DNA of 64,000 bases from a virus (IMGVR_UViG_3300020049_008034:13549-77548), one strand, 5' to 3'. Shown: positions 158 to 64,000, numbered from the stretch's first letter. Translations and numbers: made by a program. Notes: generated from the sequence alone by a model not told the origin.

Positions 158-520
158 ATGGAACATTTCTTTATTGAAGATCGCTTTTACTCCGATCTTG
201 ATGATTTTATCAATGATCTTTTCCCCGAAGACGGAGCCGTGGAGGAGCTGGAGGATGATTGGTCCATCCGGGTTCAGGAATCGAAATTGGAGCCGATGTT
301 TCAATTGGAAGACATCGCTGATTACGCCTTTGATCGAATCTTTGACAGATTTGAAGAGCGATTCAGTCACGAATCAGACGAACAAGATGAAGACATCTGT
401 CAAGCACTAAACGAGTGTTTTGACGCAGAGAAATTCAACTCACTCGTTCCGAAGCTCCATTACCCTACTGTGCTCACGACGATTACTAAACAAGATTTAT
501 TGGATTATTTAAACGATTGA
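158..520 (+). CDS. Acidic hypothetical phage protein
   Basis: ORF track 92..520; ATG at 158 directly after upstream stop is the likelier start. Confidence 0.65.
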   Translation: MEHFFIEDRFYSDLDDFINDLFPEDGAVEELEDDWSIRVQESKLEPMFQLEDIADYAFDRIFDRFEERFSHESDEQDEDICQALNECFDAEKFNSLVPKLHYPTVLTTITKQDLLDYLND

Positions 521-521
521 T

Positions 522-863
522 ATGGTAATCAACGACACCGAATACCAGCTCCCTGAGCATATCGAGCGATACATCATTCAAATCGCAGAACAAATTAAAG
601 CCCGTGGCGAAAAAGGTGCTGATGAATTAATTCAGTACAACCGCACTGAAGGCGAAATTATTTACCGGAGAACTGGTAGATCAACTCGGATTGTGGATGC
701 TGCAATTCAGCAACTATTCCCCATCGGAGATGTGTTCATCCGGGATCACTATGACAGAAGAGAAGGTCATCAACGACTAGCGAGTATTATGAAGCGAAGA
801 CTCGACACAGAACACGGAGGCAGGTATAAATTCGATAAAAAAGAACTAAAGTTCACACTATGA
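522..863 (+). CDS. Hypothetical protein with RRTGRST P-loop-like segment
   Basis: Tightly packed ORF, ATGA overlap with next gene. Confidence 0.65.
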   Translation: MVINDTEYQLPEHIERYIIQIAEQIKARGEKGADELIQYNRTEGEIIYRRTGRSTRIVDAAIQQLFPIGDVFIRDHYDRREGHQRLASIMKRRLDTEHGGRYKFDKKELKFTL

Positions 864-1093
864 CCATCGACCAAATGAATGAAATCGCAGAGTGGCTTAG
901 CCCTCTTGATAAGTACGGAATTAGTTGGAACCCTGAGTATGACTGGAAAATATACATCAACCTACCATCTCAGATCATTCCTCTCTACTTTAAAGATACC
1001 GAACTTGGGATTGCGGTAGAGAATGCAGCAGAAACATGGGAGTTGTGTAGGGTTACTACAGTCTGGGAACAAATTTGTCTAAGAAATTTATAG
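860..1093 (+). CDS. Hypothetical protein
   Basis: ATGA-coupled ORF in gene run. Confidence 0.6.
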   Translation: MTIDQMNEIAEWLSPLDKYGISWNPEYDWKIYINLPSQIIPLYFKDTELGIAVENAAETWELCRVTTVWEQICLRNL

Positions 1094-1098
1094 AAAAA

Positions 1099-1130
1099 CT
1101 TGCATGATTGAATTGGAGTGTTTATATTTG
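1099..1130 (+). promoter_or_regulatory. Bacteroidota sigma-A type promoter upstream of ncRNA/tRNA cluster
   Basis: CTTG (1099-1102), 20-nt spacer, TATATTTG (1123-1130) matching TAnnTTTG. Confidence 0.75.
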
Positions 1131-1262
1131 TGTTCGTTATATTGAAGCGCACAAGCTTAAACCAAAATCCACGACCATGTAGTTTTTAAAAATAAACTGA
1201 AGTACTCTAGGAGTTAGTAGGTTTACAGACTGACCAATAAGGGGAAAAAACGATTTTTATTA

Positions 1263-1298
1263 TCATCCGGGCTTTAAATACGATTAGACCCCGGATGA
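1263..1298 (+). repeat. Inverted pair of genome motif: TCATCCGGG-N18-CCCGGATGA hairpin
   Basis: Perfect 9-bp inverted repeat 1263-1271 / 1290-1298. Confidence 0.9.
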
Positions 1299-1301
1299 AC
1301 C

Positions 1302-1404: not shown

Positions 1405-1470
1405 ACGACTCTGGAGCAGAAGGAGTCGCCCGGATGAATACCCTCTAAGCTTTTGTGGCGGCGAGGTGAC

Positions 1471-1542
1471 TTTGCAGTAGTTTAGTGGCGAAAATACTCT
1501 GCGTGTAGCGGGGCGACGTCGGTTCGAATCCGGCCTGTAAAG
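1471..1542 (+). tRNA. tRNA-like gene, nominal anticodon UGU (Thr), non-canonical G33
   Basis: Cloverleaf: acceptor TTTGCAG/CTGTAAA, D-stem GTTT/AAAT, anticodon stem CTCTG/CGGGG with loop CGTGTAG, T-arm GTCGG-TTCGAAT-CCGGC; no encoded CCA. Confidence 0.65.
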
Positions 1543-1547
1543 CAAAC

Positions 1548-1633
1548 TTGATAGGTAGAGGGCAGATGGCTTAGCCCGACCGCTACGTGAAAGTCGTAAC
1601 GGAAACTTGCGGGTTCGAATCCCGTCTATCGAG
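1548..1633 (+). tRNA. Distorted tRNA-like element, anticodon not assignable
   Basis: Acceptor TTGATAG/CTATCGA, D-stem GGGC/GCCC, T-arm GCGGG-TTCGAAT-CCCGT; 5-nt linker after acceptor and an elongated anticodon stem. Confidence 0.5.
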
Positions 1634-1727
1634 CGCAGTCGACAACGCCTGTTTAGCGTCCTCTTGCGCGAAAACAGTAACCTAAAACGCCAATGCGCGT
1701 AAAGAGAGTGACTCCGATACAATCGGA

Positions 1728-1838
1728 TCATCCGGGCGGCTAAAGCAAGCTCAGTAAAAGCCTTGCAAGGGGAGGATGCAGTACTCGGTGCTGTGTAGGG
1801 TTCGACGCCCTCCCTAGCTTAGCTTAGAGCCCGGATGA
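1728..1838 (+). ncRNA. Structured element with T-loop (GGG-TTCGACG-CCC) enclosed by motif inverted pair
   Basis: TCATCCGGGC 1728-1737 / GCCCGGATGA 1829-1838; internal hairpin GCAGTAC-TCG-GTGCTGT. Confidence 0.5.
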
Positions 1839-1842
1839 ACAC

Positions 1843-1916
1843 AGCGGAGTAGCGCAGTTGGTTAGCGCGGGAGGCTCATAACCTCTAGGTCGTCGGTTCA
1901 AATCCGGCCTCCGCAA
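1843..1916 (+). tRNA. tRNA-Met(CAU), initiator-like
   Basis: Full cloverleaf, loop CTCATAA (CAT 1877-1879), 1:72 mismatch and fMet-like 3' half; anticodon stem has AGG rather than GGG and the A11:U24 pair is absent. Confidence 0.9.
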
Positions 1917-1919
1917 CAA

Positions 1920-2001
1920 TTCATCCGGGCGGTTAAAGAAAGTTCTGGAACGCCGAATCAGGAATAAGGTGACGGTATCCCACCTCCTGAGCCCGGATGA
2001 A
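1920..2001 (+). repeat. Motif inverted pair (11 bp) enclosing a hairpin
   Basis: TTCATCCGGGC 1920-1930 / GCCCGGATGAA 1991-2001; internal TCAGG..AGGTG / CACCT..CCTGA stem. Confidence 0.85.
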
Positions 2002-2153: not shown

Positions 2154-3155
2154 ATGAAAAAGAAAGTTCAATTCAAAGGCCAAGACCTAGAACTTGGCAT
2201 CGGCGAAAGCCTGTGGGTCAACATGAATGACCTCGAAAAAGTATCTAGCATCAAAGTGCTTACCTATCTTCAAACACCCAGGGTTTTATCTTTGGTTGAC
2301 AGAATGGAGCCAAAGCCACTAAAAGTAGATGACAGGGTGATTTGGTTCCCCGAGAAACTGGCATTGGATTATGCAAAAGCAACAGGTGATCACAGCGCTC
2401 TCAGGGGACTGATTTTAGAGCACAAACCAATTAATCCGATTATTGAAAGTAAAGACGGCAAACTCTTGGTCAGGTCTACCGACGTAGCTAACGAGTTCGT
2501 AAAGGATCACGACAATGTTCTTAGGGACATTAGAACAATGGATTGTAGTCGAGAATTCACTTCCCTCAATTTTGAGGTCAGTACATACGTTGACAGTCAA
2601 GGAGTTACAAAGCCGTGCTACTTGATGACAAGAGATGGGTTTTCGTTCTTAGTTATGGGTTTCACCGGAAAGATGGCAGCTAGATTCAAGGAGGCGTACA
2701 TCAATGCGTTTAATCGCATGGAGCACAAGTTAAGAAACAGGGCAATCGCCTTGCCCTCAAACTACATTGAAGCGCTTAAGGCTCTAGTTGTTTCAGAAGA
2801 AGCCCGGATGATCGCAGAAACCCAAGCGGAAGAGAACCAAGAAAAAGCAGAGATAGTTGATCTGATTGTAGAAACTGGCGACAACTACACTATGCAGCAA
2901 GCGGCAAATGTTCTAGGGAGCGGCAGGAAAGACTTTTTCACTTGGCTTAGAGCAAATAACTATCTCCAGTCAAACAACGAACCATACCAAAAGTACATCC
3001 GCCAAAGCCCATTTTTCGTCGTTAAGGAAAGACCCAAAGATGGGCACGTTTACCATACGCCATTCGTAACACCCAGAGGACTGGCGTATTTTGCTAAAAA
3101 GTTCAGTAAAATAAATAAATCTTCTAAAACCCTTGTACTTTTCAATCCTAATTAA
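2154..3155 (+). CDS. Phage antirepressor/regulator: KilA-N-like + Rha + ANT/KilA-C domains
   Basis: Rha motif (STDVANEFVKDHDNVLRDI...YLMTRDGFSFLVMGFTG); ANT motif (AANVLGSGRKDFFTWLR...VTPRGLAY). Confidence 0.85.
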   Translation: MKKKVQFKGQDLELGIGESLWVNMNDLEKVSSIKVLTYLQTPRVLSLVDRMEPKPLKVDDRVIWFPEKLALDYAKATGDHSALRGLILEHKPINPIIESKDGKLLVRSTDVANEFVKDHDNVLRDIRTMDCSREFTSLNFEVSTYVDSQGVTKPCYLMTRDGFSFLVMGFTGKMAARFKEAYINAFNRMEHKLRNRAIALPSNYIEALKALVVSEEARMIAETQAEENQEKAEIVDLIVETGDNYTMQQAANVLGSGRKDFFTWLRANNYLQSNNEPYQKYIRQSPFFVVKERPKDGHVYHTPFVTPRGLAYFAKKFSKINKSSKTLVLFNPN

Positions 3156-3163
3156 TACATTTG
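3132..3163 (+). promoter_or_regulatory. Bacteroidota promoter for replication operon
   Basis: CTTG 3132-3135, 20-nt spacer, TACATTTG 3156-3163. Confidence 0.7.
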
Positions 3164-3216
3164 TATCGCAAGCCAGTTTAGAAGCTTGCGATACATCCCA
3201 GCCTCAAACACAAACC

Positions 3217-3429
3217 ATGACAAAGAAAACATTCTACGCCCTAGTGGCAGAAGTCGAAGAATCTCTAGAAGGACATCCAAACGCCAATCTGATTATTTCG
3301 ATTGGCCGTTGTAATAATGAGATTGCGTTCGACAAGCGCTGGCCTCCAGTTGAGATCCTAACCTCTTACATTAACTATGTCACACCGTTTTTACACCAAG
3401 CGGTGATGACGGAAGAAGTTTATCAATGA
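3217..3429 (+). CDS. Hypothetical protein
   Basis: ATG at 3217 downstream of promoter, within ORF 3133..3429. Confidence 0.55.
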   Translation: MTKKTFYALVAEVEESLEGHPNANLIISIGRCNNEIAFDKRWPPVEILTSYINYVTPFLHQAVMTEEVYQ

Positions 3430-3671
3430 TCATCAAAACAGTAATGGATGTCTGCGCCACGGAATGGTTAGGCCTCTGCGAAGCACCTGATTACTTTGCG
3501 TTTAGGTGCTTAATAAAATTCGCCGAACACGGAGCATCTGGTCCAAGTTGCCCATACATATGTACGGGATTATGGGCACATAGTGTCAATGCGTTCATTT
3601 ACGACAATGAAGATTACGGAGACTTGACTCCGGTTTCATTTATCCCACTGTATGATCAAATTCATCCATGA
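3426..3671 (+). CDS. Hypothetical protein
   Basis: ATGA-coupled ORF. Confidence 0.55.
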   Translation: MIIKTVMDVCATEWLGLCEAPDYFAFRCLIKFAEHGASGPSCPYICTGLWAHSVNAFIYDNEDYGDLTPVSFIPLYDQIHP

Positions 3672-3940
3672 AACAGGAAATAATCAATAAAATTGCCAAC
3701 TACCTACATTATTGTACGGTATACGAAGCTCCGGACAACATAGATATCGCTGAGGATATATACTCCAAGATTGAGCCCATGATCGAGGCAGAAGCTCAAA
3801 AGTTTGCCGGCTGGGTGGCGAATCAAGCGATTAATGGGAGGACTTATAATAAGCTATGGCTAGACTACAAGCAGAGCAGCAAGGCTGACTGGAATATGAA
3901 TTTGATTACCCCGGTAGATATAAAGCATGACACTCCCTGA
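3668..3940 (+). CDS. Hypothetical protein
   Basis: ATGA-coupled ORF. Confidence 0.6.
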   Translation: MKQEIINKIANYLHYCTVYEAPDNIDIAEDIYSKIEPMIEAEAQKFAGWVANQAINGRTYNKLWLDYKQSSKADWNMNLITPVDIKHDTP

Positions 3941-4421
3941 CTTCATCACGCCCAAATTGATTAGGGAATTTTCCCGAAAAGCTAATGTCTCCGAGCAAGT
4001 CTTTGAAGAATCTTTAGTTGACTACGTGACCACCCAACGTATCACAATCGACTCACGGTACGTCAAAGACTTCCTAAACAGGCATGTCAAGTTTTTAGAA
4101 AAAGCTCCTCCTCGGGTGGTATGGCAGTATGACGCCAGTTCACACATGGATTTGGCTCATAAAGTTGTTTCGTTCCTTAAGAACCTAAAAACGAAAGACG
4201 AGTACGGCCACACATACGGAAAGACAGTGACAGGTCTTGAGATTGACCGAGTCCCGGATGAACAGGCACTCACGACCGCCTTGATTAAAGGCTGGGTCGG
4301 TAGAGAAGATTTAAAATCAATTTGCCTATATTGGCGCAAAACCAAACCAAAATCATTTGTTTCTTTTCGTACTGAAAATGACTGGAAAGAAGAAGTGAGG
4401 TGGTGTAAAAATGGGTTATGA
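3927..4421 (+). CDS. Hypothetical protein, possibly replication-associated
   Basis: ORF in run preceding helicase; function inferred from position only. Confidence 0.6.
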   Translation: MTLPDFITPKLIREFSRKANVSEQVFEESLVDYVTTQRITIDSRYVKDFLNRHVKFLEKAPPRVVWQYDASSHMDLAHKVVSFLKNLKTKDEYGHTYGKTVTGLEIDRVPDEQALTTALIKGWVGREDLKSICLYWRKTKPKSFVSFRTENDWKEEVRWCKNGL

Positions 4422-4759
4422 AAATCAACCGAAATAACTTCGACTTTATGACCAAAACAGAAACAACGATTACTGTTTTGGTCACGGAAATCCCGGATGA
4501 AATTGAACGATTTGAAGCAGATCCTAAAGACGAACGGTTTCTTTCGTTTCCAGTCGGGAAATTTATTGAAAAGATAGACGCAACCGACCAGCACAAATAC
4601 TTCGGATGTCAAGTCTGGATGGCAACCTACGAGCGTCACCCAGATCAAAAATTCACTCCGCTTAAAGCTATGAATAAAGAAGCTGCCGAGCATTACAATC
4701 GGATTAGTGGGAAAGGGACTAGGGCGCGGAAGATTCCTAAAAAGAAAACAAATGATTGA
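4418..4759 (+). CDS. Hypothetical protein
   Basis: Coupled ORF immediately upstream of helicase. Confidence 0.6.
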   Translation: MKINRNNFDFMTKTETTITVLVTEIPDEIERFEADPKDERFLSFPVGKFIEKIDATDQHKYFGCQVWMATYERHPDQKFTPLKAMNKEAAEHYNRISGKGTRARKIPKKKTND

Positions 4760-6113
4760 AAAAATAGCGCTAAGCGCAGCCATGGTTCATAATGAACTTG
4801 TGGCGGATTTACATACTGAATTTTTCGTAGAATATAACGAGATAGCCAAAGCTATCAAAAAGTTGTATTATGAACAGAAAAAGATCACACCGAATCTCGT
4901 TAAAATAAAGCTAGGAGACAGTCCTGCTTTGAGTGAAATCGTTGAGGTATACCCCACGATAGACGAAGGCAAAGAAGCCTTTAAAGACCTTAAGATTGCT
5001 TTTGAGAAGCGCGCATTTACTGAAGCCATCGTCGAGCTGGGTAAAATGAACGAACGGCACAGTATTGATATGTCTATGAAGGTATTCTCAGACAGGATAA
5101 ATGCAATACGCGACATATCTGACCGAAGAATACATTCTGCTGAAGACCTAATAGAGCCACTTTTAGCCTACATGTCAGAAGCAAGAATAAAAGGCCCGTG
5201 GAAGCCATTATTTGGCATTTCTCACGTAGATGAACTCATAAAAGGTTATGCTCCCGGGGATGTTACAGTCTTTCTTTCGGCTCCTAAGGAGGGGAAAAGC
5301 TCAGTAGCAACTAGGATTATACAAAATGCAATCGAAACAAACTCGGGCGTTTTTATATCTTCTGGAGAAATGACTGAGATAGACGTTCTAATGAGACCGC
5401 TGGCAGTAATGAGTAACCACCGAACGGCTGAGCTCGAAGACGGGTCGGTAATATCAGACGATAAATTCCTGCAATCCCTCGATGAATTAAAAGACAAAAA
5501 GGTATTCATATCTAACCGTGGGCTATCTATTCCACATATGCAGGAAGAAATAACTACGTATAAATCCCTTCACGGAGTGGATCTTTTCATGTACGATCAG
5601 TTAAACCTGTTTGACGAAGTGATTCAAGACAAGGGATGGACTGCTTACCAGCAAGTTATAGCCTCTGCGCGAAAACTAGCAAATCATCACAAGGTCGCAA
5701 TTTGTATCTTCCATCAAGTAAATAAAGAATTTTTGGTAAAGCCAGCGTTTAGGCCTACGGTGTACTCCGCTAGGGGCGGTCAGTCATCTTTGATGCAATC
5801 CACAAAAGTGATCTTACTTCACAGGCCAGAAGCTCACGGGCTGGTTAATTTCGAAGACGGACCGTTCAAAGGCGTAAGGTCATCCGGACTCATGGAGGTG
5901 TTTGTTGGGCTAGGAAACCGTATTAGGCTTGGATCCGCTTTAGTCAGGTTCGTTGGAGAACAACAAGCCGTAGTCCCACTAGACCCAGGACTAGAAATTA
6001 GCGGAATCAAACTGGATGAGCCATTCTATTATGGAGCTAGTTCAAAAATTGACGAAAAGCCTATTTTTCACTTTGAGGACGAAGGCGAAAAAGCTGACGA
6101 CCTGCCATTCTAA
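4752..6113 (+). CDS. dnaB: DnaB-like replicative helicase
   Basis: Walker A SAPKEGKS, SGEM motif, Walker B MYDQL, HQVN motif, N-terminal helical domain; ends in DDLPF. Confidence 0.85.
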   Translation: MIEKIALSAAMVHNELVADLHTEFFVEYNEIAKAIKKLYYEQKKITPNLVKIKLGDSPALSEIVEVYPTIDEGKEAFKDLKIAFEKRAFTEAIVELGKMNERHSIDMSMKVFSDRINAIRDISDRRIHSAEDLIEPLLAYMSEARIKGPWKPLFGISHVDELIKGYAPGDVTVFLSAPKEGKSSVATRIIQNAIETNSGVFISSGEMTEIDVLMRPLAVMSNHRTAELEDGSVISDDKFLQSLDELKDKKVFISNRGLSIPHMQEEITTYKSLHGVDLFMYDQLNLFDEVIQDKGWTAYQQVIASARKLANHHKVAICIFHQVNKEFLVKPAFRPTVYSARGGQSSLMQSTKVILLHRPEAHGLVNFEDGPFKGVRSSGLMEVFVGLGNRIRLGSALVRFVGEQQAVVPLDPGLEISGIKLDEPFYYGASSKIDEKPIFHFEDEGEKADDLPF

Positions 6114-6117
6114 TATC

Positions 6118-6411
6118 ATGAAAATTTTAAAAAACCATTGGTTTTGGGTTGTTGTAGTTACGATCCTAATTGCTATCGGATCGTTCGCGTGCACCGATAT
6201 ACCTGTTCCTTGCGAAACGGGTCGAGTTAAAATCTTGACAGATTTCGCTGGGCCGTACTACCAAGAGGTGAATGGATACCGTGAAGGTGCAAATTTCTAT
6301 ATGCCAGAATGTCACGACTATCAAACTGGTCGCGTCTTGGTGAATGTGGATATTACTAACATCGCCGTTGGATTTACTCCGATGGTGGTTAAATTTCCGA
6401 GCTGTGACTAA
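6118..6411 (+). CDS. Putative lipoprotein/membrane-anchored protein
   Basis: Hydrophobic N-terminus ending in GSFAC lipobox-like sequence. Confidence 0.55.
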   Translation: MKILKNHWFWVVVVTILIAIGSFACTDIPVPCETGRVKILTDFAGPYYQEVNGYREGANFYMPECHDYQTGRVLVNVDITNIAVGFTPMVVKFPSCD

Positions 6412-6573
6412 GCACATTATCAAATCGCGTTACATTAAATTTTGCCCAGTGATCGGGATTGGATACTGGAAGGACGTGTACTTGAAAGAAGAAATTGGAA
6501 TGGGTGGGGTTGCTCATAATTTTGTGCTTCCGTTCATTCGTATTCAGTGGGGTTATCTTGAAATCGACAAACC

Positions 6574-6783
6574 ATGACTAAAGAGCAAGCAAAAAAGTTC
6601 GCAAGAGTATGGATTGGGCAACTTTTGTGGGAGGTGAATTTCGACAGAAAGTCTGTAGATTGCCCTGATGAAGACAAGGATATAATCGAGTTAGCAATCA
6701 ACGATCAGTTTTTCAAACTTCTTGGGAAATGTGATTACCTATCTCCTCAAGAGATTTATGACATCATGAATGATAGTATCTAA
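6574..6783 (+). CDS. Hypothetical protein
   Basis: ORF in operon run. Confidence 0.5.
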   Translation: MTKEQAKKFARVWIGQLLWEVNFDRKSVDCPDEDKDIIELAINDQFFKLLGKCDYLSPQEIYDIMNDSI

Positions 6784-7135
6784 GCGAAACGGAAGAATTG
6801 ACTTAAAAATCCTCGAACAACACCTTCGAGAAATGCCTGATGGAGACTACGCAGTTGACCTTACTCCGCTTACTACAGCTACACGTAGGCAGAATGCGTA
6901 TTTGTTCTCTCATTTGGCTAAGTTGTGCCAAGATCACTTGAGGTCAACCGGGATTTCGGTATCAAAAGATGTTGCGATAAATATTTTCCGCAAAAGTCTT
7001 GGATATTCAGAAATGATCATTAATTTTGATGAGAAGTTCGAAGGATACGATGTTCAAAACTTCATTGAGGCATTGTTCTTTGAACTTTTAGATTTGGGCT
7101 GCAAACCTGTTCACCCTAAAGACTATGTTAAATAG
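6770..7135 (+). CDS. NinB-like recombination protein (tentative)
   Basis: TRRQNAYLFSHL motif resembles NinB family. Confidence 0.5.
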   Translation: MIVSKRNGRIDLKILEQHLREMPDGDYAVDLTPLTTATRRQNAYLFSHLAKLCQDHLRSTGISVSKDVAINIFRKSLGYSEMIINFDEKFEGYDVQNFIEALFFELLDLGCKPVHPKDYVK

Positions 7136-7291
7136 CTATTTATCTATCATCTCATCAATCGAATTTATTCGAGAAACGGAGTTTGAAAACCAGAGTCAGG
7201 TAAAAGACTGTTTAAAGTTTCTTTCCGCAATGGGTTTGCTGACAGACGACGTTCTTGATCATCTATTGCTAATCTTCTTAACTTTACCAGA

Positions 7292-7579
7292 ATGACACTA
7301 CACGACCAAATGCGAAAAGACCTCCTTAAGCAGAAGGAACAAATCGAATCGCGCGGATACATGAAAGGCAGAGACCTTGAATTAAACTTGGGAACTTTTG
7401 TCGTCAAGAAAGGCGACAAACACTACTCTAACGGGAATTTTTCATTGAGCGACCCGGATGAATTTGACCGGCGTGACGCTACGGAGTTAGCCTTTAAAAC
7501 CGGAGGATTGGTTTTTAAGTCCGAAGTTTACTGGGGTAAGAAATACCAAACAATTTTACAAGCACTTTCTTCGCTTTAG
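7292..7579 (+). CDS. Hypothetical protein
   Basis: ORF upstream of primase. Confidence 0.6.
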   Translation: MTLHDQMRKDLLKQKEQIESRGYMKGRDLELNLGTFVVKKGDKHYSNGNFSLSDPDEFDRRDATELAFKTGGLVFKSEVYWGKKYQTILQALSSL

Positions 7580-52877: not shown

Positions 52878-52878
52878 T

Positions 52879-56053: not shown

Positions 56054-56601
56054 GTTACAACTTTTTGTTTAGATTTCCAAATTACGGGACTTGATCTTCG
56101 GATCAAAAAATACCCATGGTCTTCGTCGTGCGTGTGAGCGTTTTCCATCTCCAGTTTCTTTCCGCCTTTGGGGATGTACATGTCTCCATGGTGATCCAGT
56201 GGGCGTTCGTCACCTTTGTGTGGCTTGCCGGTAGAGATAGTTCGGACAAAATTGGAACGTGTGCTTTGTTCTGCAATTCCAAATCTCTCTTGCTCGTAGA
56301 ATTTAACAATTGTGTGATCACCGATTGGGGTAAGACCGTTACGTTCTACGGCGAATAAGTGATCGTAGCTTACGAGTAAGTAGCCGTTCCAGCGCTCGGT
56401 GATAGGCGAAAACCAGACAGTCTCCCCTGGGTAGACACGTTCGGAGAAATCATCCGGGCCGTCAGTCTTTGTGATGTATTTCGGAACATCAACAACTACT
56501 CCGGATACTGGAGCTGTCTTTGCTGTGTCGTTGTATTCATTTGGGTCCTCAAAAGGCAGGACCAGGATTCGGTTGAATGCTATCATAATTTTGGTTTTCA
56601 T
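56026..56601 (-). CDS. GroES-like co-chaperonin with tandem domains
   Basis: NRILVLP...GVVVDVP...VYPGETVWF...LLVSYDHLFAV, then a second PIGDHTIV... unit. Confidence 0.65.
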   Translation of the reverse strand: MKTKIMIAFNRILVLPFEDPNEYNDTAKTAPVSGVVVDVPKYITKTDGPDDFSERVYPGETVWFSPITERWNGYLLVSYDHLFAVERNGLTPIGDHTIVKFYEQERFGIAEQSTRSNFVRTISTGKPHKGDERPLDHHGDMYIPKGGKKLEMENAHTHDEDHGYFLIRRSSPVIWKSKQKVVTCASKNQSK

Positions 56602-56875
56602 CAGATGCCAGTAGAATGTAATCCTCCAGCCCGTGTTGTTCGGTAAAATTAACCAGCTCAGGAATGGTTGTCAACCCGATTATCTTAATCGTTTTCTTGT
56701 CGGTGTCAATTAGTACTTTCATAGTTGTGTTTTAAGCATAAAAAATAGCCAAATACAAAAATAGCTGTATCGCCCAGTATTTCTAAGATAGAGGATATTG
56801 TTTTGTTAGACACAAAAGCATCTGACACGCCCAGTATAAACATCAGGCAGATCGTAACAATGAGTATCTTGTTTG

Positions 56876-57433
56876 TCATAGCGCCATCAATCTTTTTAAA
56901 ACATCATCACTCGTGTGTCCATCCCATGCGTAATTTGCGGTAGGTGTTTCAGGAATTTTAAATAAATCCCAGTCTTTCGCTTCGTAGTGGTTTGAAATCT
57001 GCCCAGTCGGAAGTATGGCGACAACAATGAACCATCCACCTCCGAAGCACAAGACTCCGTCGTTGTGACGCCATGATTTATGGACGTCGTATTTTGAGTT
57101 GTTGGAGTTTTCATATCCGACACCTCTCTGTTTGCCCCACTCATTAAACAATGCTGCATTGTAAACTTTTCGGAATTCGTAAAGCTCACTGAAAGTATGA
57201 TAGCCGTCTGAGAATTGTTCTTTGTTTGGATGATTTAGAACATTATTTTGGATCACACTGAATTCGACCTTCTCTTTTAGTTCATCCGGGATCTTATCAA
57301 AATCAATGTAGTGGTTTTTGACAAGCAAGCCAGATACTTCGATTTTGTTTGCGATATTTTCAGCGATAAGATCTACCATATCTGCCCTGAAGTCCTTAAG
57401 CCCTTCTTTAATTAGCTCTTTCATAAACCTCAA
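56876..57433 (-). CDS. WDGH-domain protein (copy 1)
   Basis: SDGYHTFSELYEFR...WFIV...QISNHY...WDGHTS. Confidence 0.7.
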   Translation of the reverse strand: MRFMKELIKEGLKDFRADMVDLIAENIANKIEVSGLLVKNHYIDFDKIPDELKEKVEFSVIQNNVLNHPNKEQFSDGYHTFSELYEFRKVYNAALFNEWGKQRGVGYENSNNSKYDVHKSWRHNDGVLCFGGGWFIVVAILPTGQISNHYEAKDWDLFKIPETPTANYAWDGHTSDDVLKRLMAL

Positions 57434-57710
57434 CTTTTGTTTGATTTACCACCCGTAGTTGGCGGTCTTCGATGAAGAAATCCTTACCGTGAGGAAGTAG
57501 AACTCGGTCGCCTACTTTGTATGGGCAAGGGTGGATACCTATGGCCCACTTAAGTCTGGCGATGAATGGGTAATCAGGGAGGTAGGGTGGACCGAGAGAT
57601 ACGACCACACCCCAATCTTCTTTGATTTTTTGGGTATAAACTGATGAACCAGATTCCGTGGGTTCAATGACTGCGAACCCACGGTTGGTTTTAAATTGTT
57701 CTGTGTACAT
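57408..57710 (-). CDS. groES: Co-chaperonin GroES-like
   Basis: GVVVSLGP...KVGDRVLLP; directly downstream of GroEL. Confidence 0.75.
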   Translation of the reverse strand: MYTEQFKTNRGFAVIEPTESGSSVYTQKIKEDWGVVVSLGPPYLPDYPFIARLKWAIGIHPCPYKVGDRVLLPHGKDFFIEDRQLRVVNQTKVEVYERAN

Positions 57711-59160
57711 TGTTGAATTCTCGGATTAATGAATAAGCCGATTTGATCGACTCGTTGACAACATCGGCTGATTCCCAAATGTCAGCTTCATCCGGGCTCA
57801 TGTGTTTTTTGGTTCGGAAATTGTAAACCGTTCCGCCTTCGTCGAGATCCATTGACCGCAACAGTTTTTTACGCGGCTCGTAGATCGCCTCTCCGAATCT
57901 CTCATACCCTTCTTTGTAAGCTTGTTCGGAGATCTTAAAAAATGAATATGCGCATCCGGGAACTACGCCATTTTTTAAGACGGAAATAGAAGAAATAGCG
58001 CAGTCTTCAATCGAATCCCCGATAAGCCGGTGTTCAGCCTCGGTGTCTCCGCCGATGTAGATGAAACCGACACCCTTTGATAACTTGGAAAGTCTTTCCT
58101 CGATGTCATCTTGGTTTTCGGGTGTGATTTGAGCTTTCAGGTCATCGATCAACTTTTGAATTACCCCGAGATCTTTCATTTTGATCCGAGAGTACCCTTG
58201 TTGCCCTGGGCCAGACTGCGTGAGCTCGATTTCTTCGGCTTCTCCGAGGTCTGCGAGTTCGAGGCTTGTTCCTTTGATCGGGAACAGGAACTTAGTAGAC
58301 TGAGAGAACACTGTCGCCCCAGTTGCTTTTTTGATGTCTTCAAAAGAATACCCATCCTTCCATCCTGCGGCTAGGAAAATCGGAAGCCCTCTGTGTGATT
58401 TGCGAACACCGTTGTGCATCCATTCCCTTGGGGTGAGGTTGTCTAAAACTGCTTTAATAGCGGGTTTGGCGATCTCTGTTCCGAAAATAACAAGTGGGCG
58501 GTCTGTTCCAAGTTCCATGTATTTTTGGATAATCAATCCCATTTGCTGATCTCCCATGATAGCATCGTGAACCAACATAACATATGGGTTCTTGAGAACC
58601 ACGGAGTTGTGCGTATACTCGGCATGTGGGGAACGATTCATGAAGTCCGGAGTGTAAAGACCCCCGTCTGTCACATATCCTTCCTTGATTTCGATTCTCG
58701 TTTTAGAGCCGATGTTCGAAATAGGAACGATGTATGCGTGAGTACCAAGCTCCCAAATTAGATCAGCAACAAGTTTAGACTCTGGTCGACCGTTACCGGA
58801 AATCCCGGCAGCTTGGTAAAATTGTTCTTTAGTAGCCTCTTCACCTTTGACTAAGAATTGATCGATGTCAACATCTTCCCAGTTTTCCAAGAAAGCCCCT
58901 GCCAGGATGGCAGTAGTTGTTGTGCCATCTCCGGCCTTTTTGACTGTGCGGTTACAAGCGTCCGCTAGAAGTCGGGCTCCAGTATCGTCTGGTTTGGCGT
59001 TGATGTACTGCATCAATGTCTTAACGCCGTCTCGTAAGATGACGGGATGTGGGATGCCTTCTTGTTTAGAAAATAGAACATTTCCTCCGTTGGGACCGAA
59101 AGTTGTACCTACGGTGTCTGCTGCGTCCTTGATTTGGACGGCGATGTCAGTTTTTGTCAT
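57691..59160 (-). CDS. groEL: Phage chaperonin GroEL-like (489 aa)
   Basis: TFGPNG, DGVK, GDGTTTT, IEDC and GVVPG motifs. Confidence 0.92.
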   Translation of the reverse strand: MTKTDIAVQIKDAADTVGTTFGPNGGNVLFSKQEGIPHPVILRDGVKTLMQYINAKPDDTGARLLADACNRTVKKAGDGTTTTAILAGAFLENWEDVDIDQFLVKGEEATKEQFYQAAGISGNGRPESKLVADLIWELGTHAYIVPISNIGSKTRIEIKEGYVTDGGLYTPDFMNRSPHAEYTHNSVVLKNPYVMLVHDAIMGDQQMGLIIQKYMELGTDRPLVIFGTEIAKPAIKAVLDNLTPREWMHNGVRKSHRGLPIFLAAGWKDGYSFEDIKKATGATVFSQSTKFLFPIKGTSLELADLGEAEEIELTQSGPGQQGYSRIKMKDLGVIQKLIDDLKAQITPENQDDIEERLSKLSKGVGFIYIGGDTEAEHRLIGDSIEDCAISSISVLKNGVVPGCAYSFFKISEQAYKEGYERFGEAIYEPRKKLLRSMDLDEGGTVYNFRTKKHMSPDEADIWESADVVNESIKSAYSLIREFNNVHRTI

Positions 59161-59932
59161 AAATTACCCATTTGCCGGTTGAAGAAGTAATTTTTAAACC
59201 CCTTGCTACGGCGTTATCGATGTTTTCTAGTTTGTATTTCTTGATTGTTCTCCACAGTTTCTTGTCGTACCGACTATCGGTAGCGTATGGGCTTTTATGA
59301 AACACATAGCACCACTCAGCGGTAGACAACTCTTTCCCTTGGGCATTCTTGATCACCCGGTAGTTAGATAAAATTTTGGCCTTACGTTGCCATCCATGCC
59401 ACTGCGTAGGCATGATTTCGTAATAGTCGTTAGACCCCTCGATTTTATCATACCCACGAATACAAGTTGGTGTTTTCTCTAATTCGAGCCTTGCGTGAAT
59501 TCTCCTTAATCTTTTTGACCCATTACACCGACATTTAATATTACCGCTGTTGTTTGTTTTTTGGGTTAACTTGGATTTCCCGAACCTAGACTCTAATGCG
59601 TCCTGAGCGATTAAGACGGATGGGGGACAGCCGATTAGCTCGGAATATGTTACCGCTCTTTTGATAATTTCTCCGTGAGCCAAGTAGTCTCGGATCATTT
59701 TATCAGAGACTAATTGATCGAGTGATACCGATTCTGTAGCTAATGCCAGTGGAGTTCGGTGAGTCGTAAGCGGTGTATCTACGAGTTTTGGTCTAATTAC
59801 ACTGACTAATGTCTCTTCGTCGCTCTCCTCGAAACAAGCGATAGGCTGTTCGGGAGGAAGGATGGCAGCGTTGCACAACTTGTAGTCTTTTACAGCAGTT
59901 AGTGCGATTAAAATAATAAAAAATCTAAGCAT
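59147..59932 (-). CDS. Glucosaminidase (GH73/FlgJ-like) with N-terminal hydrophobic anchor
   Basis: IAQDALESRFG, NNSGNIK and YATDSRY motifs. Confidence 0.85.
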   Translation of the reverse strand: MLRFFIILIALTAVKDYKLCNAAILPPEQPIACFEESDEETLVSVIRPKLVDTPLTTHRTPLALATESVSLDQLVSDKMIRDYLAHGEIIKRAVTYSELIGCPPSVLIAQDALESRFGKSKLTQKTNNSGNIKCRCNGSKRLRRIHARLELEKTPTCIRGYDKIEGSNDYYEIMPTQWHGWQRKAKILSNYRVIKNAQGKELSTAEWCYVFHKSPYATDSRYDKKLWRTIKKYKLENIDNAVARGLKITSSTGKWVIYDKN

Positions 59933-60408
59933 TCTTTTATTTTTTGGTGAAACTCGGACAGCGAACCGTCGTTGTTAATTTCGTAATCTACGTCCAATTT
60001 GTCCCAGTTGTCGGACTCATGCCCGGTGCGTTGGCAGTCGGGGCGGTTGATTCGAATAATTTTCCCTCCTAGTTTTCGGATGGCTTCGACTTCGTTGTCG
60101 TATCTCACATCCGGGATTACTGATAGGTTATAGTAAAATGCTTTGCCTAGAGCCAAATCAACCCAGAAGTCTTCATTTAAGCTTCGCATGGAAGCCCCTA
60201 CGGTTTCCAAGACCTTGCGTCCAGTAACTCCCGGCCATATTTCCATATCTTTAGTCTCGCGGAGCGTATAGTCGTGACCCGTTAGATCTTGGCATACCTG
60301 TTTCAAGGCGTCAGCGAAGCCTATTTTTTCCGCGAATCTTGTTACTGTGGCGTAGTCGCAGAATGTATCCTTTCCGCTCCCTATTCCACCTGTAATCCCG
60401 AGTACCAT
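59908..60408 (-). CDS. Deoxynucleoside monophosphate kinase
   Basis: GITGGIGSGKDT, FADALK and DVRYDNE motifs. Confidence 0.88.
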   Translation of the reverse strand: MVLGITGGIGSGKDTFCDYATVTRFAEKIGFADALKQVCQDLTGHDYTLRETKDMEIWPGVTGRKVLETVGASMRSLNEDFWVDLALGKAFYYNLSVIPDVRYDNEVEAIRKLGGKIIRINRPDCQRTGHESDNWDKLDVDYEINNDGSLSEFHQKIKECLDFLLF

Positions 60409-61007
60409 TCTAAGATCATATTTGTGTGTGCTGCTGCAATAACTCCTATGTTGTCTAAGATTAATTTGCAGTCAAGTTCACTTGTGAAGAAAAAGTTTTC
60501 ACTAAGGATGGCTGAGCAGTTGGTCCCGTGTAGCTCCCAAAAACGTGTCGGATAAGCACGAGATGGATTTGGGTGAACACCGCGATTCTTTTCGCCCGGG
60601 AATAGAAGCTCCATGTGTTTATTTAGAACCTCAGCTTCTCTTTTAGCTGTAGCGTAAAATACGTGATGCCCACGGGCGTGATTAAAGCTCCCGTCACCAA
60701 CCGCGTCGCTATGAACTCCGATCCATAAATCGCCTTTTAACTTATTCCCGAGCTTAACTCGTTCGTTAAGATATTGTCCGACATTTTCAGAATTAGGGAC
60801 TACGTTGATCACCTCAAGGCCATCCGGGTAGTTGGCAGAGACGATATGTCGAACGATTTCTCGGTTGGTCCACCATTCAGGCAAGACAAACTTTCTTTGC
60901 TTATCCTCCCGCATGATCCGTTCTTTAAGCGGATGATCAAACGGAAGCTCGGGGCTGCGCTTGCCTTTTTGATAGAATCCATGTCCCGGGTTAACTAAAA
61001 CTCTCAT
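60381..61007 (-). CDS. N-acetylmuramoyl-L-alanine amidase (Amidase_3)
   Basis: NPGHG, E..N, GVHSD and LSEN motifs. Confidence 0.85.
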   Translation of the reverse strand: MRVLVNPGHGFYQKGKRSPELPFDHPLKERIMREDKQRKFVLPEWWTNREIVRHIVSANYPDGLEVINVVPNSENVGQYLNERVKLGNKLKGDLWIGVHSDAVGDGSFNHARGHHVFYATAKREAEVLNKHMELLFPGEKNRGVHPNPSRAYPTRFWELHGTNCSAILSENFFFTSELDCKLILDNIGVIAAAHTNMILEWYSGLQVE

Positions 61008-61213
61008 TCTTCACATTTAATATTGCCATAATCATCAAAATTCACTTTACCGCTTAAAGCCATTTGAATTCCAATATGAACGGCGTCAATAACGATTGAT
61101 TCCACCTCTGAATGATAACCGGTATGAAGCGGGATGGCCCCAGTGCATTCAAGCCATTCCTGTAGATTGACAATTGCGTAAGCTTCGGCTCTCTTTACTT
61201 CTCCTTTTGTCAT
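61004..61213 (-). CDS. Hypothetical protein
   Basis: Coupled ORF. Confidence 0.55.
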   Translation of the reverse strand: MTKGEVKRAEAYAIVNLQEWLECTGAIPLHTGYHSEVESIVIDAVHIGIQMALSGKVNFDDYGNIKCEE

Positions 61214-61437
61214 TCCTCCAAAGATTTCATGGTCCTCAAAGCAGCTTGACTGTCTTCGATAATGTCTTTAGCCGACTCCTCGTTTACTACAAAAACCATG
61301 CCTTTTAAAATTCGCCCTTCTTTCGTCTGAGCGACTTTTTTAAAAGTTGTGTTTTTTACGATCCAATCGATGATTCCTGATTCGGCGATCTGGTCATGGA
61401 TTGGTCGGCCTTCGATGTAGGTTAGCTCAAATTTCAT
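61210..61437 (-). CDS. Hypothetical protein
   Basis: Coupled ORF. Confidence 0.55.
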   Translation of the reverse strand: MKFELTYIEGRPIHDQIAESGIIDWIVKNTTFKKVAQTKEGRILKGMVFVVNEESAKDIIEDSQAALRTMKSLEE

Positions 61438-61524
61438 TTGTGTGTTTTAGAAGATAGAGAAACTCTTTATATGTGATTTCCTTTTTCTTCATTATTTTTA
61501 CAATTCTTAGGAATGTTTCAAAGC

Positions 61525-61815
61525 TCATGGTTTTACAATGTTTACCAACACCCGACATGTCATTAAGTCGAGATCGGCGGTTTTGAAATAATTCCTTAAT
61601 TTTTCGTTCAACTCTCGCCTCTCCTGTTCGTCGTACCAAGCACTCGTGTCCTCGATAATGTCCTCAGTCTTGACGAACTCACTCCGATCCTTCTTTGGTC
61701 CTTCGAGATAAACGAAGGACAAGACCTTGCCTCCGGACTTGTCCTTGTACCCGTTCACTCTCATGGGGCAAAGATAATCTTTAATTTCGATATACACAAT
61801 GCTTCCTATTTCCAT
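61525..61815 (-). CDS. Hypothetical protein
   Basis: Coupled ORF. Confidence 0.5.
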   Translation of the reverse strand: MEIGSIVYIEIKDYLCPMRVNGYKDKSGGKVLSFVYLEGPKKDRSEFVKTEDIIEDTSAWYDEQERRELNEKLRNYFKTADLDLMTCRVLVNIVKP

Positions 61816-62078
61816 TTTGTAATTTCTTCAATTGGTGCATCGAGCCACTCGAACCATATCAACGAAACTGTGTAGTCATCGATGTCTACAATAATGTTCC
61901 CTGGTGTAGATTTTGTGTTGACTATGACTTCCATTGGGAATTTTATATTGTCAACAGGGAAAACGTTTTTGGGAAATTTCTTAACTGCATGGGTAGACCA
62001 TCCTAGTAAAATCATTTCTGATAAGTTTGTGCCACTCCTCTCGCCTGCCGGTCTTTTTGGCGCTCTTCTAAGTTCCAT
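61806..62078 (-). CDS. Hypothetical protein
   Basis: ORF in run; start uncertain. Confidence 0.45.
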   Translation of the reverse strand: MELRRAPKRPAGERSGTNLSEMILLGWSTHAVKKFPKNVFPVDNIKFPMEVIVNTKSTPGNIIVDIDDYTVSLIWFEWLDAPIEEITKWK

Positions 62079-62338
62079 AGAGCGGCTTGGAGGTGTTCGA
62101 TGGCGGTTGTTGTGAATTTGTTTTCTAACTCGCCTTGGTTGACTGATTCGAGATGTTCAACTAGAAGCTGGATTAGTGTATCAGTGATGAAGCCCGGATG
62201 AGCCGGGGCATCCTTCGATCCTTTGCAGAACTCAATATCTTTACCTCCTATGTGAACTAAGCCATTTTCAGTGACTTTGTAAACTGGGAGCTCATAAGTG
62301 TGTGAGCTCAACCTTGTTATTGTTTTTGGATTTATCAT
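62012..62338 (-). CDS. Tad1-like anti-defence sponge protein
   Basis: IEFCKG...PGFITDTLI...HL...AIEHLQAALWNLEERQKDRQARGVAQT matches the Tad1 pattern F.EG...NG...L..RL...A..K.EEAL.WL..R..DR..RGV.GT. Confidence 0.65.
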   Translation of the reverse strand: MINPKTITRLSSHTYELPVYKVTENGLVHIGGKDIEFCKGSKDAPAHPGFITDTLIQLLVEHLESVNQGELENKFTTTAIEHLQAALWNLEERQKDRQARGVAQTYQK

Positions 62339-62609
62339 ATTTTATAAACATTGGATCAATTGAACAATATGGTCCGCCGAACCAAGCTACGGGTTGACCG
62401 GATGACAATTCAGCCTGATGAGACAAGATTAACATTCGATACTCGGAGTACGGATCTCTCCGCCACATGACCGGATCGCCAACTTTGAATTGACTATTGA
62501 ATCGGTCAACCAAAGCTTTTCGCTCTTTATTTCGCTTCCTCCAGCAAGCAGCGCGGTGATTAGCTATGCCGAGGCTGTGGAATTCTTTTTGGCAAATTGG
62601 ACAGTTCAT
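62292..62609 (-). CDS. Small protein with N-terminal C2HC zinc finger
   Basis: CPICQKEFHSLGIANHRAAC. Confidence 0.55.
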   Translation of the reverse strand: MNCPICQKEFHSLGIANHRAACWRKRNKERKALVDRFNSQFKVGDPVMWRRDPYSEYRMLILSHQAELSSGQPVAWFGGPYCSIDPMFIKYDKSKNNNKVELTHL

Positions 62610-62893
62610 AACGTAAGTTTATCTATTGCTTTACCAATCTCAACCGGATCAGGAACAGGGAGTTCTTCACCTCGTCTCCAGCGGTTGTATGTTTTCAAAA
62701 GTTCAACCTCAGCCTTGTATTCTTCTTTGGCGAACTCAAGTCCTTTAACGACAGCACCCATGACCATATCGAGATCAGTTCCGTGAAACACCTGCCAGCC
62801 TTCTTTTGAGAAGATAGCTTGGTTGCCCTTAAAATCTTCGGTGAGGCATTTGAGGATTTTCTTCTTGATTAGGTTGCGTTGTTTATTGGTCAT
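62606..62893 (-). CDS. Hypothetical protein
   Basis: Coupled ORF. Confidence 0.55.
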   Translation of the reverse strand: MTNKQRNLIKKKILKCLTEDFKGNQAIFSKEGWQVFHGTDLDMVMGAVVKGLEFAKEEYKAEVELLKTYNRWRRGEELPVPDPVEIGKAIDKLTL

Positions 62894-63450
62894 AGGCTTT
62901 TTAAACGATTTATTACATCCTCACTCGTATGCCCATCGAAATATGGATTTACATCAAACCATGGAACGCCCTCCAGCGCTTCCCAGAATCTCATCGGCAA
63001 GTGGTATGTGATTTGCTTCCCTTCTTCAGGGAAAAGGCCAGCTATAAACCATCCTTCCCATTTTTGACCGTCTGCATTGGCTAACGCTCTCCATGCTTGG
63101 GTTCGGTTGGAATTGATTAGGGCGATAAAAAGCGAGTATCGGTGCTCGTACAATTCTTCGAAAGAATGATAGCCATCTGAGAATTTAGATTTGTCTTTGG
63201 TCTGCAAGATGGCATTCTGGACTCCTTTGAACCAAAACTCGTCTTTGTATCCATCCGGGTAGGCCGCGAAGATTACGTCTTGGATTTGCGGTCCAATGAG
63301 CCCGGATAAGGAGAGCTTATCGGAAAGCTCTTTAGCGATCTCATGTTTGGCGCATGGCCATTTTGCATTAAACTCGCCTACCGTTCCGTCCCATCGACGT
63401 TCAGAAATTTTCTTGCCATCCAAGTAGGCGGTGATGATTTCAACTATCAT
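62890..63450 (-). CDS. WDGH-domain protein (copy 2)
   Basis: SDGYHSFEELYEHR...GWFIAG...QITYHL...FDGHTS. Confidence 0.7.
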   Translation of the reverse strand: MIVEIITAYLDGKKISERRWDGTVGEFNAKWPCAKHEIAKELSDKLSLSGLIGPQIQDVIFAAYPDGYKDEFWFKGVQNAILQTKDKSKFSDGYHSFEELYEHRYSLFIALINSNRTQAWRALANADGQKWEGWFIAGLFPEEGKQITYHLPMRFWEALEGVPWFDVNPYFDGHTSEDVINRLKSL

Positions 63451-64000
63451 ATCTTAACAATTTTAAAACACCCATACTTATTCTTAACGAAATAAACTCC
63501 GTTAGGTAAGTCTGAGATGTTGTTGGTTATAAATCTTCCCGTTAAATCGAATACTTTTCCTTCGATTGGACCGTGAGTTGGGAATTTTGGTCTTTCGGAG
63601 CCCGGATGATCTGTTGAAGTTAGATTGTCTTCGAGATAAGTAATGTAAACCATAAACATTTCATCTTGGCTTCTCGGGCCGTAAGTCACAACTCTGTCGG
63701 TTTCGTATACTGCCGTTGCTTTTAAGACATCTCCTTTGTTTGCGACTACCGGTTCTGTGAACTCGTAAGTCCGCTGCCAGTGAAAGCGCCACTTTTGAAT
63801 TCCTATTAACTTTTTATCACCTAAACTAACGTTAATCGACTTGCCGTATGTGTGCATGTGCGGCAATATAGAGATCATGGTGATGTTTTTCGGTATGACT
63901 GTTTGACTATTTACTGTCGTGAGCCCTGATAAAAATAAGTCTGTTTTATTAATGAACGGTTCAGTCTTTAACTCTCTCCCGCGTCCGAGCTTCATTAAAA
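63447..64000 (-). CDS. Copper type II (PHM-like) monooxygenase C-domain plus T9SS C-terminal sorting domain; 5' truncated by window
   Basis: PHMH, WRFHWQRTY, GP.SQDEM; ends VFDLTGRF...LPNGVYFVK...FKIVKI; frame is open to the window edge. Confidence 0.8.
   Translation of the reverse strand, partial: LMKLGRGRELKTEPFINKTDLFLSGLTTVNSQTVIPKNITMISILPHMHTYGKSINVSLGDKKLIGIQKWRFHWQRTYEFTEPVVANKGDVLKATAVYETDRVVTYGPRSQDEMFMVYITYLEDNLTSTDHPGSERPKFPTHGPIEGKVFDLTGRFITNNISDLPNGVYFVKNKYGCFKIVKI

Follow-up and report, generated by a model that had tools for sequence, protein, structure and literature searches.

An asymmetric octamer iterated about once per kilobase in a tailed phage, with an orientation that follows gene class

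The viral contig IMGVR_UViG_3300020049_008034 (77,548 bp, 43% GC) carries the asymmetric octamer CCCGGATG at a density of approximately one copy per kb. The stretch analysed initially, to which we refer as the window, comprises 64,000 nucleotides and corresponds to bases 13,549-77,548 of this one contig; coordinates below are those of the window unless given as genome coordinates. Gene content identifies a tailed phage. Its ~120 open reading frames (ORFs) include those for a large terminase (TerL), virion proteins, an endolysin and a GroEL-like chaperonin, and further genes encode Rha/ANT, DnaB, DnaG, an SNF2 helicase, exonucleases and a TnpB insertion. By TerL, the closest cultured phages, at only 24% identity, are those of Cellulophaga and Flavobacterium, of the Pachyviridae type, and neither a megablast search of 20 kb against phage records nor a single-protein TerL scan of IMG/VR gave a match. 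One phage protein matches a Bacteroides-type phosphatase family, promoter-like TAnnTTTG boxes are present, and the phage occurs in seven public DNA sequencing runs, the four best of which are labelled wastewater, with no RNA run listed. Together with the relatives, these observations suggest that the host is probably a bacterium of the Bacteroidota, an assignment made at the level of the phylum and not of the species.

The octamer lies on both strands between positions 265 and 63608 of the window, where 56 copies are present vs. 1.42 ± 1.09 expected, with a maximum of 5 in 100 dinucleotide-preserving shuffles. This ~40-fold enrichment agrees with a first-pass annotation of the window, which had put it at roughly 50-fold from 55 listed starts; every one of those is an exact match on either strand, and a single copy (55153, plus strand) had been missed. 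Across the whole genome there are 81 copies vs. 2.05 expected under an order-2 Markov model (z = 55), 55 on the minus and 26 on the plus strand. The worry raised at first pass, that many unrelated 8-mers might be equally enriched, can be set aside: none is comparable, the best unrelated 8-mer in the genome having 28 copies, and all other high-scoring 7-, 8- and 9-mers overlap CCCGGATG. Among the 24 single-mismatch variants the sole enriched one is CCCGGTTG, an A-to-T change with 18 copies in the genome vs. 2.2 expected, 17 of them in the window; the others have 0-6 copies each. Base nine is a purine in 52 of the 56 window copies (52 of 55 at first pass) and in 75 of all 81. The flanks are biased towards A at +10, C/T at +11, G/T at -1, A at -2 and A/G at -4, and the biases at -4, -2, -1, +9, +10 and +11 are alike in sense, antisense and intergenic copies. 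The extended consensus, R-N-A-K-CCCGGWTG-R-A-Y, is therefore asymmetric with a very strict core, around which conservation fades within ~4 nt. One tolerated mismatch combined with persistent flank preferences is a specificity like that of a protein. A literature search for the literal word turned up primers alone.

With doubtful ORFs removed, 33 of the window copies are sense, 11 antisense and 12 intergenic, close to the 37:11 ratio of sense to antisense counted previously. When synonymous codons are shuffled within each gene, the genome total falls from 81 to 20.9 ± 2.1, ~14 of which are intergenic copies left untouched by the procedure; synonymous shuffling abolishes ~90% of the coding copies. 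The enrichment also persists against a shuffle that keeps both the amino acids and the bases at codon junctions, which yields 54.8 ± 2.9 copies and at most 63, vs. the 81 observed. Pro-Asp is encoded as CCG-GAT 30 times vs. 9.3 expected from codon usage, and around these dipeptides C closes the codon before in 24 of 30 cases (background 23%) and G opens the codon after in 26 of 30 (background 32%). Chance or a codon artefact is excluded by the shuffles.

Relatives of the phage were collected as loci from metagenomic TerL and DnaB homologues. Wherever TerL is at least 43% or DnaB at least 57% identical, the octamer is a top 8-mer of the locus, at 0.3-2.2 copies per kb; these dense relatives span identities of 43-95% for TerL and 57-75% for DnaB. 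At TerL identities of 28-39%, the count is 0-1 in twelve loci of similar GC; 38 kb of Cellulophaga phage phi19:3 likewise have 0-1, and in none of these is another word comparably enriched. One dense relative (L007; TerL 47%) has its enriched core shifted to GGCCCGGWT. Counts in 22 kb of this locus are 15 for GCCCGGAT, 11 for GCCCGGTT and 18 for GGCCCGG, and GGCGCC is likewise enriched. Conservation in related phages, named at first pass as a check, is far above background: 84 of 137 comparisons have the motif position in common vs. 5-20% identity for arbitrary 8-mers, in alignments of 64-81% nucleotide identity, and sites in the dominant orientation are conserved in 63-87%. Sites also turn over, as one of the two TerL sites is gone in a 95%-identical protein via a single synonymous change. 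The shuffles, the context of CCG-GAT and the conservation of orthologous sites thus bear out the core of the earlier proposal, a nucleotide-level signal and not a codon or peptide effect, and the octamer is under purifying selection at the nucleotide level. Its density in the closer relatives and the conserved orthologous sites make it a selected, heritable feature of one phage subclade, to which it is restricted, and also a practical marker for spotting clade members in metagenomes.

A methylase-driven motif, one of the options in the first-pass annotation, gains no support, since no methyltransferase was found among the phage proteins scanned (not all were) and neither GGATG nor CCGG is depleted outside the motif; the latter result also removes a restriction-site logic based on FokI (GGATG) and HpaII (CCGG). 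Two relatives (L159:16674-17363 and L157:13019-14281) have genes for an N6/N4 DNA methyltransferase, a PAPS-reductase-like protein and a nucleoside deoxyribosyltransferase in the replication module. Those three genes have no counterpart among the scanned proteins of the phage studied here, and octamer density is equal in phages with or without them.

The orientation of the octamer follows gene class. The early region (genome 1.3-14.7 kb), with its rightward small genes, has 4 plus and 22 minus copies, an antisense placement; its final two copies fall within the window at 265..744 (minus), again opposite to the rightward early genes. The middle block of rightward replication genes (genome 15.6-26.4 kb; window 2154..12863, plus), encoding Rha/ANT, DnaB, DnaG and a truncated tyrosine recombinase, has 9 plus and 2 minus copies and therefore a mainly sense motif. 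The leftward arm (genome 26.4-77.5 kb; window 12835..63998, minus) comprises the SNF2 helicase, an exonuclease, virion genes, TerL and lysis genes; with 8 plus and 28 minus copies its motif is likewise mainly sense (28:8), most often read as xxC-CCG-GAT-GAx (P-D-E/D/G). These regional contrasts have Fisher p-values of 2e-4 and 6e-4; a runs test on the order of orientations was not significant. By a rough estimate, reasoned and not computed, amino-acid constraints would predict no sense preference. The minority orientation is still ~10-fold above chance, which argues that the site is wanted either way round and that the bias is second-order. The relatives' late genes repeat the sense bias (41:17), and the early orientation recurs in two relatives of 67-72% protein identity, with plus:minus counts of 2:9 (L163) and 2:15 (L164). 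Spacing is regular in the early region (coefficient of variation (CV) 0.53, P < 0.001) and slightly so in the late arm (CV 0.75, P = 0.03).

Several genes in these two blocks deserve comment in their own right. The tyrosine recombinase (10075-10956, plus) has its catalytic domain at residues 14-209 without the usual N-terminal core-binding domain. It is kept beside DnaG in both relatives that cover this position (L158 and L159), a place and an architecture that are unusual for an integrase. A 1972-aa virion protein (19652-25570, minus) has an internal ParB-like domain at residues ~770-855, and its gene is octamer-poor, with 2 copies in 5.9 kb. The TnpB gene (27830..29077, minus; IS605 OrfB with a Cas12f-like TNB domain) has zero copies and lies within the motif-poorest stretch of the genome; there is no TnpA near it. 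TnpB relatives of 54-61% identity occur in several phyla, including metagenome-assembled genomes (MAGs) of Patescibacteria and Chloroflexota. With matches spread over so many phyla TnpB is not diagnostic as a tracer of the host, and its matches were used solely to reach Bacteroidota genomes.

The early region is where the motif is placed most regularly with respect to genes. Thirteen copies at genome 2,057-7,558 read (T)TCATCCGGG on the coding strand; most of them lie 1-3 nt past a stop codon, with the following ATG 20-47 nt further on, and about half continue into a small hairpin. The intergenic junction copies all share one orientation and one register. The early order in both L163 and L164 is as here: stop codon, motif, small hairpin, leader, ATG. 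Approximately 17 of 29 junction copies run into a GGGC-loop-GCCC hairpin, the stems of which covary (GGGA/TCCC, GGGTC/GACCC); two of these hairpins stay paired through G-U, which is possible on the sense strand only. At one junction (genome 3922-3976), a type III hammerhead takes the place of the motif, with an Rfam score of 41.5 bits (E = 2.8e-6) that is below the gathering score of 48.5. A promoter reading was rejected, as sense copies are not clustered upstream of gene starts and no host -7 box follows the early copies.

A second concentration of ordered copies is found around the tRNAs at the left of the window, where seven copies within 740 bp alternate in orientation around two tRNAs. 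The tRNA island opens with an inverted motif pair that forms a 9-bp stem with an 18-nt loop (1263..1298, plus). The homologous hairpin in one relative (L157) has changes in both arms, which yield the compensatory pair CATCCTGG/CCAGGATG. Another inverted pair (1429..1737, plus) brackets tRNA-Thr (1471-1543) and a second, tRNA-like unit, and tRNA-Met (1843-1917) is flanked, 4 nt off on each side, by the 11-bp inverted copies GCCCGGATGAA and TTCATCCGGGC (1828..1931, plus). The trailer, consisting of the tRNA end, CAA and TCATCCGGG, is also present behind a tRNA-Leu in L157. In a further inverted pair with a 60-nt loop (1920..2001, plus), the second copy is just upstream of the Rha/ANT promoter, which is of the Bacteroidota type (TTTG ... 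TAnnTTTG); this arrangement is kept in L157. An inverted-pair scan of IMG/VR gave at least 118 matches, about the chance level and mostly in GC-rich contigs, none of them like this phage.

These observations could be explained by a signal at the RNA level, which we nevertheless consider rather unlikely. (U)UCAUCCGGG in rightward transcripts would then be a site of processing or decay for a sequence-specific endoribonuclease or RNA-binding protein. The early polycistron would be cut into units and later inactivated, middle and late mRNAs would be spared because they carry the complement, and antisense or read-through RNAs over middle and late genes would be destroyed. The fixed early register and its retention in L163 and L164, the ribozyme at the one motif-free junction, the covarying hairpins entered by about 17 of 29 junction copies with their two sense-strand G-U cases, the CAA-TCATCCGGG trailers behind tRNA 3' ends, and the inverted pairs around tRNAs in two phages, with one compensatory change, all favour such a role. 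A precedent exists in RegB of phage T4, an endoribonuclease whose sites in early mRNAs, the 4-nt GGAG, overlap the Shine-Dalgarno sequence. Both systems would place a short word at early-gene junctions for temporal shut-off, but the complement of GGAG is not enriched in the late genes of T4, whereas here the complement is. An RNA-level signal leaves unexplained why this complement is ~40-fold enriched and under purifying selection inside middle and late mRNAs; no precedent is known for antisense RNA being selected against at a density of one site per kb, and late genes show a ~10-fold enrichment even of the orientation that should be cleavable. In addition, single copies are hardly more structured than GC-matched controls (0.71 vs. 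0.64), so the hairpins are not a general context of the motif, and complementarity to 16S rRNA extends to at most 7 nt.

The switches in orientation could also reflect replication. A probable replication origin lies at genome 11444-12140, where 2.8 copies of a 23-bp iteron (genome 12.07-12.14 kb) directly follow an initiator gene with HTH_36 and DnaD_N-like domains and are accompanied by an AT-rich stretch. A C-rich tract (genome 12330-12420) of CCCCC runs broken by AA or T separates this origin from an inverted motif pair that immediately precedes an ATG at genome 12547. If the octamer marked the lagging-strand template, for example as a start site for DnaG primase or for a replisome-coupled factor, forks from the iterons would replicate the early region and the late arm leftward and the middle block rightward. 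The switches at ~14.8 kb and 26.4 kb of the genome, the phage-encoded DnaB and DnaG (no polymerase was found among the proteins scanned), the density of one site per 0.8-1 kb, which approximates the spacing of Okazaki fragments, and the slightly regular spacing in the late arm are consistent with this. DnaG-type primases, however, recognise some three bases rather than eight or more. Moreover, the first switch is 2.7 kb from the iterons, the implied replichores would be very unequal (14 kb vs. 63 kb), the middle block is mixed in orientation in relatives, GC skew merely tracks gene direction, and the stop-codon register finds no explanation. On balance, we regard a replication-strand signal as improbable. 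As regards the ends of the contig, an exact 121-bp direct repeat (genome 1-121 and 76117-76237; window 62569-62689) joins its start to a point 1.3 kb before its end and is not a terminal overlap.

Among the precedents cited in the first-pass annotation were several words that belong to bacterial genomes: Chi, KOPS, DNA uptake sequences, HIP1 and REP. We counted the 9-mer CCCGGATGA in 401 genomes across the Bacteroidota and in 251 of one order (~650 genomes). Genomes typically have 20-60 copies, and the richest has 254 in 3.7 Mb (69 per Mb), vs. 722 per Mb in the phage, so that the enrichment in candidate hosts envisaged at first pass was not found: no searched genome approaches the phage, the densest reaching at most a tenth of its density. 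Within 400 kb of the richest genome, 94 octamers are observed vs. 41, 59.5 and 76 expected under models of order 2, 5 and 6, respectively; the octamer sits there among many other CCGGAT-containing words, and its strands are balanced along 737 kb. Strand counts are 26:29 on one contig (G014) and 14:16 and 11:14 on the two sides of a complete genome (G247), with the direction of rRNA operons as a proxy for replication. A replication skew suggested by apparent one-strand 9-mer runs in three large contigs was not confirmed by the full octamer list. In most Bacteroidota genomes (G005-G621), CCCGGATGA outnumbers its reversed control ~5-20-fold, with 78 vs. 2 in one MAG of the Balneolaceae; in the one genome sampled, the excess reflects a general surplus of CCGGAT words. 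Given that no searched genome comes near the phage density and that no skew was seen, an origin in a host Chi, KOPS or uptake word, or in host composition, is not supported in these genomes; the true host may lie outside them.

Uptake sequences, HIP1 and REP are, like the octamer, highly iterated short words that also invade coding sequence, but all three belong to host genomes and two of them, HIP1 and REP, are palindromes, whereas the word described here is asymmetric and confined to one phage clade. CCCGGATG is not its own reverse complement and its strands are unequal (55:26), which speaks against HIP1 as a model. The resemblance to REP does not extend to a ~35-bp clustered intergenic palindrome, as copies are mostly single, lie in coding sequence and are conserved for ~4 nt beyond the core. 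A density of about one copy per kb, as in the genome of a competent host with uptake sequences, was seen in none of the genomes searched. That the phage inherited a host word of the uptake, HIP or REP kind, or one produced by codon or repair bias, is, together with chance and codon artefacts, largely refuted, and we give it next to no chance. In its favour, CCCGGATGA counts of 20-60 vs. 1-5 for the reversed control are typical of most Bacteroidota genomes, at least one of which has CCGGAT among its frequent hexamers; this bias is slight and lacks specificity for the octamer, the site is not a palindrome or part of a longer repeat, and sister phages with TerL at ≤39% identity do without the octamer at similar GC.

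Chi merits closer attention. In the coliphages P1 and LLS, Chi is the most frequent octamer, with one site per 1.9 kb; it is biased in orientation (20:3 in LLS, 32:0 in Pseudomonas phage MD8), and its sites come and go without an explanation in codon usage (PMC12315714). The pattern within our phage is strikingly alike, with a top octamer overlapped by 7 nt by the next ones, one site per 1-2 kb, a strong orientation bias (~79% of sites on one strand outside the middle block), sites in coding sequence, turnover and independence from codon usage. The octamer could thus be a hotspot for the host's AddAB or RecBCD, amassed by the phage to tame this nuclease as in P1, LLS and MD8; as of 2010, the Chi sequence of Bacteroides AddAB was not known (PMC2887965). 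The likeness ends with the host. Chi in P1 and LLS is only 2.5-fold denser than in the host (PMC12315714), where the word is abundant and skewed, whereas CCCGGATGA remains at ≤69 per Mb in the ~650 Bacteroidota genomes, none of which provides a match. Neither an over-represented word at about one per 5 kb or more nor a leading-strand skew (G247, G014) was found in the genomes searched, and even the richest one has 94 copies vs. 76 at order 6 and no long-range skew. The phage furthermore has its own exonucleases and, next to one of them, a protein that is possibly SSB-like, and the motif, unlike known Chi sequences, is not G-rich. The neighbouring protein (275 aa) belongs to the phage family Pam3_Gp34/DUF5895 by atlas look-up, which is only a lead. 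Because the host side fails and the stop-codon register is unexplained, a Chi-like function has, despite the match within the phage, a small chance of being correct.

What kind of molecule could read the octamer? The strict core with its shared flanks, the selection at silent sites, the phylogenetic boundary together with the drift of the core in one relative, and the lack of a host counterpart argue for a sequence-specific reader that belongs to the phage lineage. We infer that this reader is a phage-encoded protein that acts on DNA and not on RNA, and that orientation works via transcription. Binding sites for a phage protein, a class of explanation already put forward at first pass, indeed remain the best class; that annotation was made without the preceding part of the genome, in which the motif marks the gene junctions of the early operon. 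Tentatively, we propose that CCCGGWTG(RAY) is the site of a lineage-specific DNA-binding or nicking protein, with an orientation that matters to transcription in a manner similar to stoperators. A protein peculiar to the lineage, most likely encoded by the phage, would bind or nick the DNA at ~100 places. Since both orientations are selected and the bias tracks gene class, recognition of the duplex site would be the primary function, with the orientation bias following as a side effect of polarity. A bound monomer or a nick would form an obstacle specific to one strand, halting RNA polymerase if on the template strand and letting it pass otherwise. In the early operon, one template-strand copy lies 1-3 nt past nearly every stop codon and ~30 nt ahead of the following ATG, and occupancy would punctuate or shut off early transcription; middle and late genes have the site mostly on the non-template (sense) strand, which would let RNA polymerase pass.

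Stoperators of L5, a cluster A mycobacteriophage, are ~30 asymmetric 13-bp sites for the repressor gp71 that are located near stop codons and block transcription in an orientation-dependent manner. They share with the octamer that dozens of short asymmetric sites are spread genome-wide, one per 1-2 kb, with orientation-dependence and specificity for a phage lineage, and that they often adjoin stop codons within very short intergenic gaps, a position matched here in the early operon. Strand-specific recognition is also known from phage T5 and the Pseudomonas phages tf and phiKMV, with sequence-specific nick sites at 5-20 per genome. These too have a short asymmetric consensus far above chance and are encoded by the phage lineage, and a nick in the template strand would yield exactly the polarity rule seen here; their 5-20 sites compare with ~100 here.

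A number of results weigh against our proposal. Stoperators are mostly intergenic at gene ends, whereas 83% of the 81 octamers are inside coding sequence by the first gene call (~69% without doubtful ORFs); 14-25 of 81 are intergenic, depending on gene calls, and the early operon alone fits. Stoperators also have one orientation in both arms, unlike the octamer, which is antisense in early genes (22:4) and sense in middle and late ones (9:2 and 28:8). With neither the mostly intergenic location nor the single orientation, the phage is not a member of the stoperator family, and it differs further in having a strict 8-mer core and no repressor recognised by Pfam, PHROGs or NCBIfam. Among the proteins scanned with these resources, no repressor-like HTH protein, methyltransferase or nickase could be tied to the motif; the truncated tyrosine recombinase and an HNH/HTH endonuclease beside TerL (44927-46009) are only candidates for the reader. 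The early operon lacks internal host-type promoters, so that DNA roadblocks at its junctions would abolish downstream expression unless imposed late. The hammerhead that replaces a motif and the hairpins that stay paired through G-U favour a role at the RNA level, to which the tRNA trailers and the lack of internal promoters are equally suited; the orientation map fits a replication-strand rule around the iteron origin just as well, and the mixed middle block of the relatives departs from the rule by gene class. Our preference for a DNA-binding or nicking protein is held with low confidence because no reader has been identified, because the early junctions fit RNA processing at least as well, and because the replication-strand rule fits too.

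Both orientations being far above chance, the octamer could alternatively be a mark that works irrespective of orientation, with the bias as a side effect. A phage protein would coat or compact the DNA or label it as self, for example so that it would escape a phage nuclease directed at host DNA or be shielded from host defence. With a density in the phage no less than 10 times that in any Bacteroidota genome searched, the word does discriminate phage from host DNA; the phage encodes Mre11-like and other exonucleases, the 1972-aa virion protein has a ParB-like domain, and the recently acquired TnpB gene has no site. The shared orientation and register of the early junction copies are not predicted by a purely orientation-blind function, and no binding protein was identified. 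We therefore consider such a mark on its own unlikely, only slightly less so than the strand signals discussed above. Elements of these explanations may also be combined: a private 8-bp strand mark, read by a member of a novel family at the protein or the RNA level, might both label the genome and switch off or cut early transcripts, a reading that we hold possible yet doubtful.

The octamer is a real and strong finding that is not explained by any known family. To our knowledge, temporal control via the orientation of one ubiquitous word has not been described as a principle for any phage. Words iterated genome-wide are rare, and each case that is understood (Chi, KOPS, uptake sequences, stoperators) has exposed new machinery for handling DNA. 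The case described here is unusually clean, with a strict 8-mer that is enriched ~40-55-fold, selected at silent sites, limited to one diverged clade and missing from its sister clades, without a counterpart in the Bacteroidota genomes searched, and oriented by a rule that follows gene class. If the Chi reading were true, the octamer would be the first Chi sequence for AddAB of the Bacteroidota; more generally, it may reveal a new sequence-specific reader of DNA or RNA in Bacteroidota phages.

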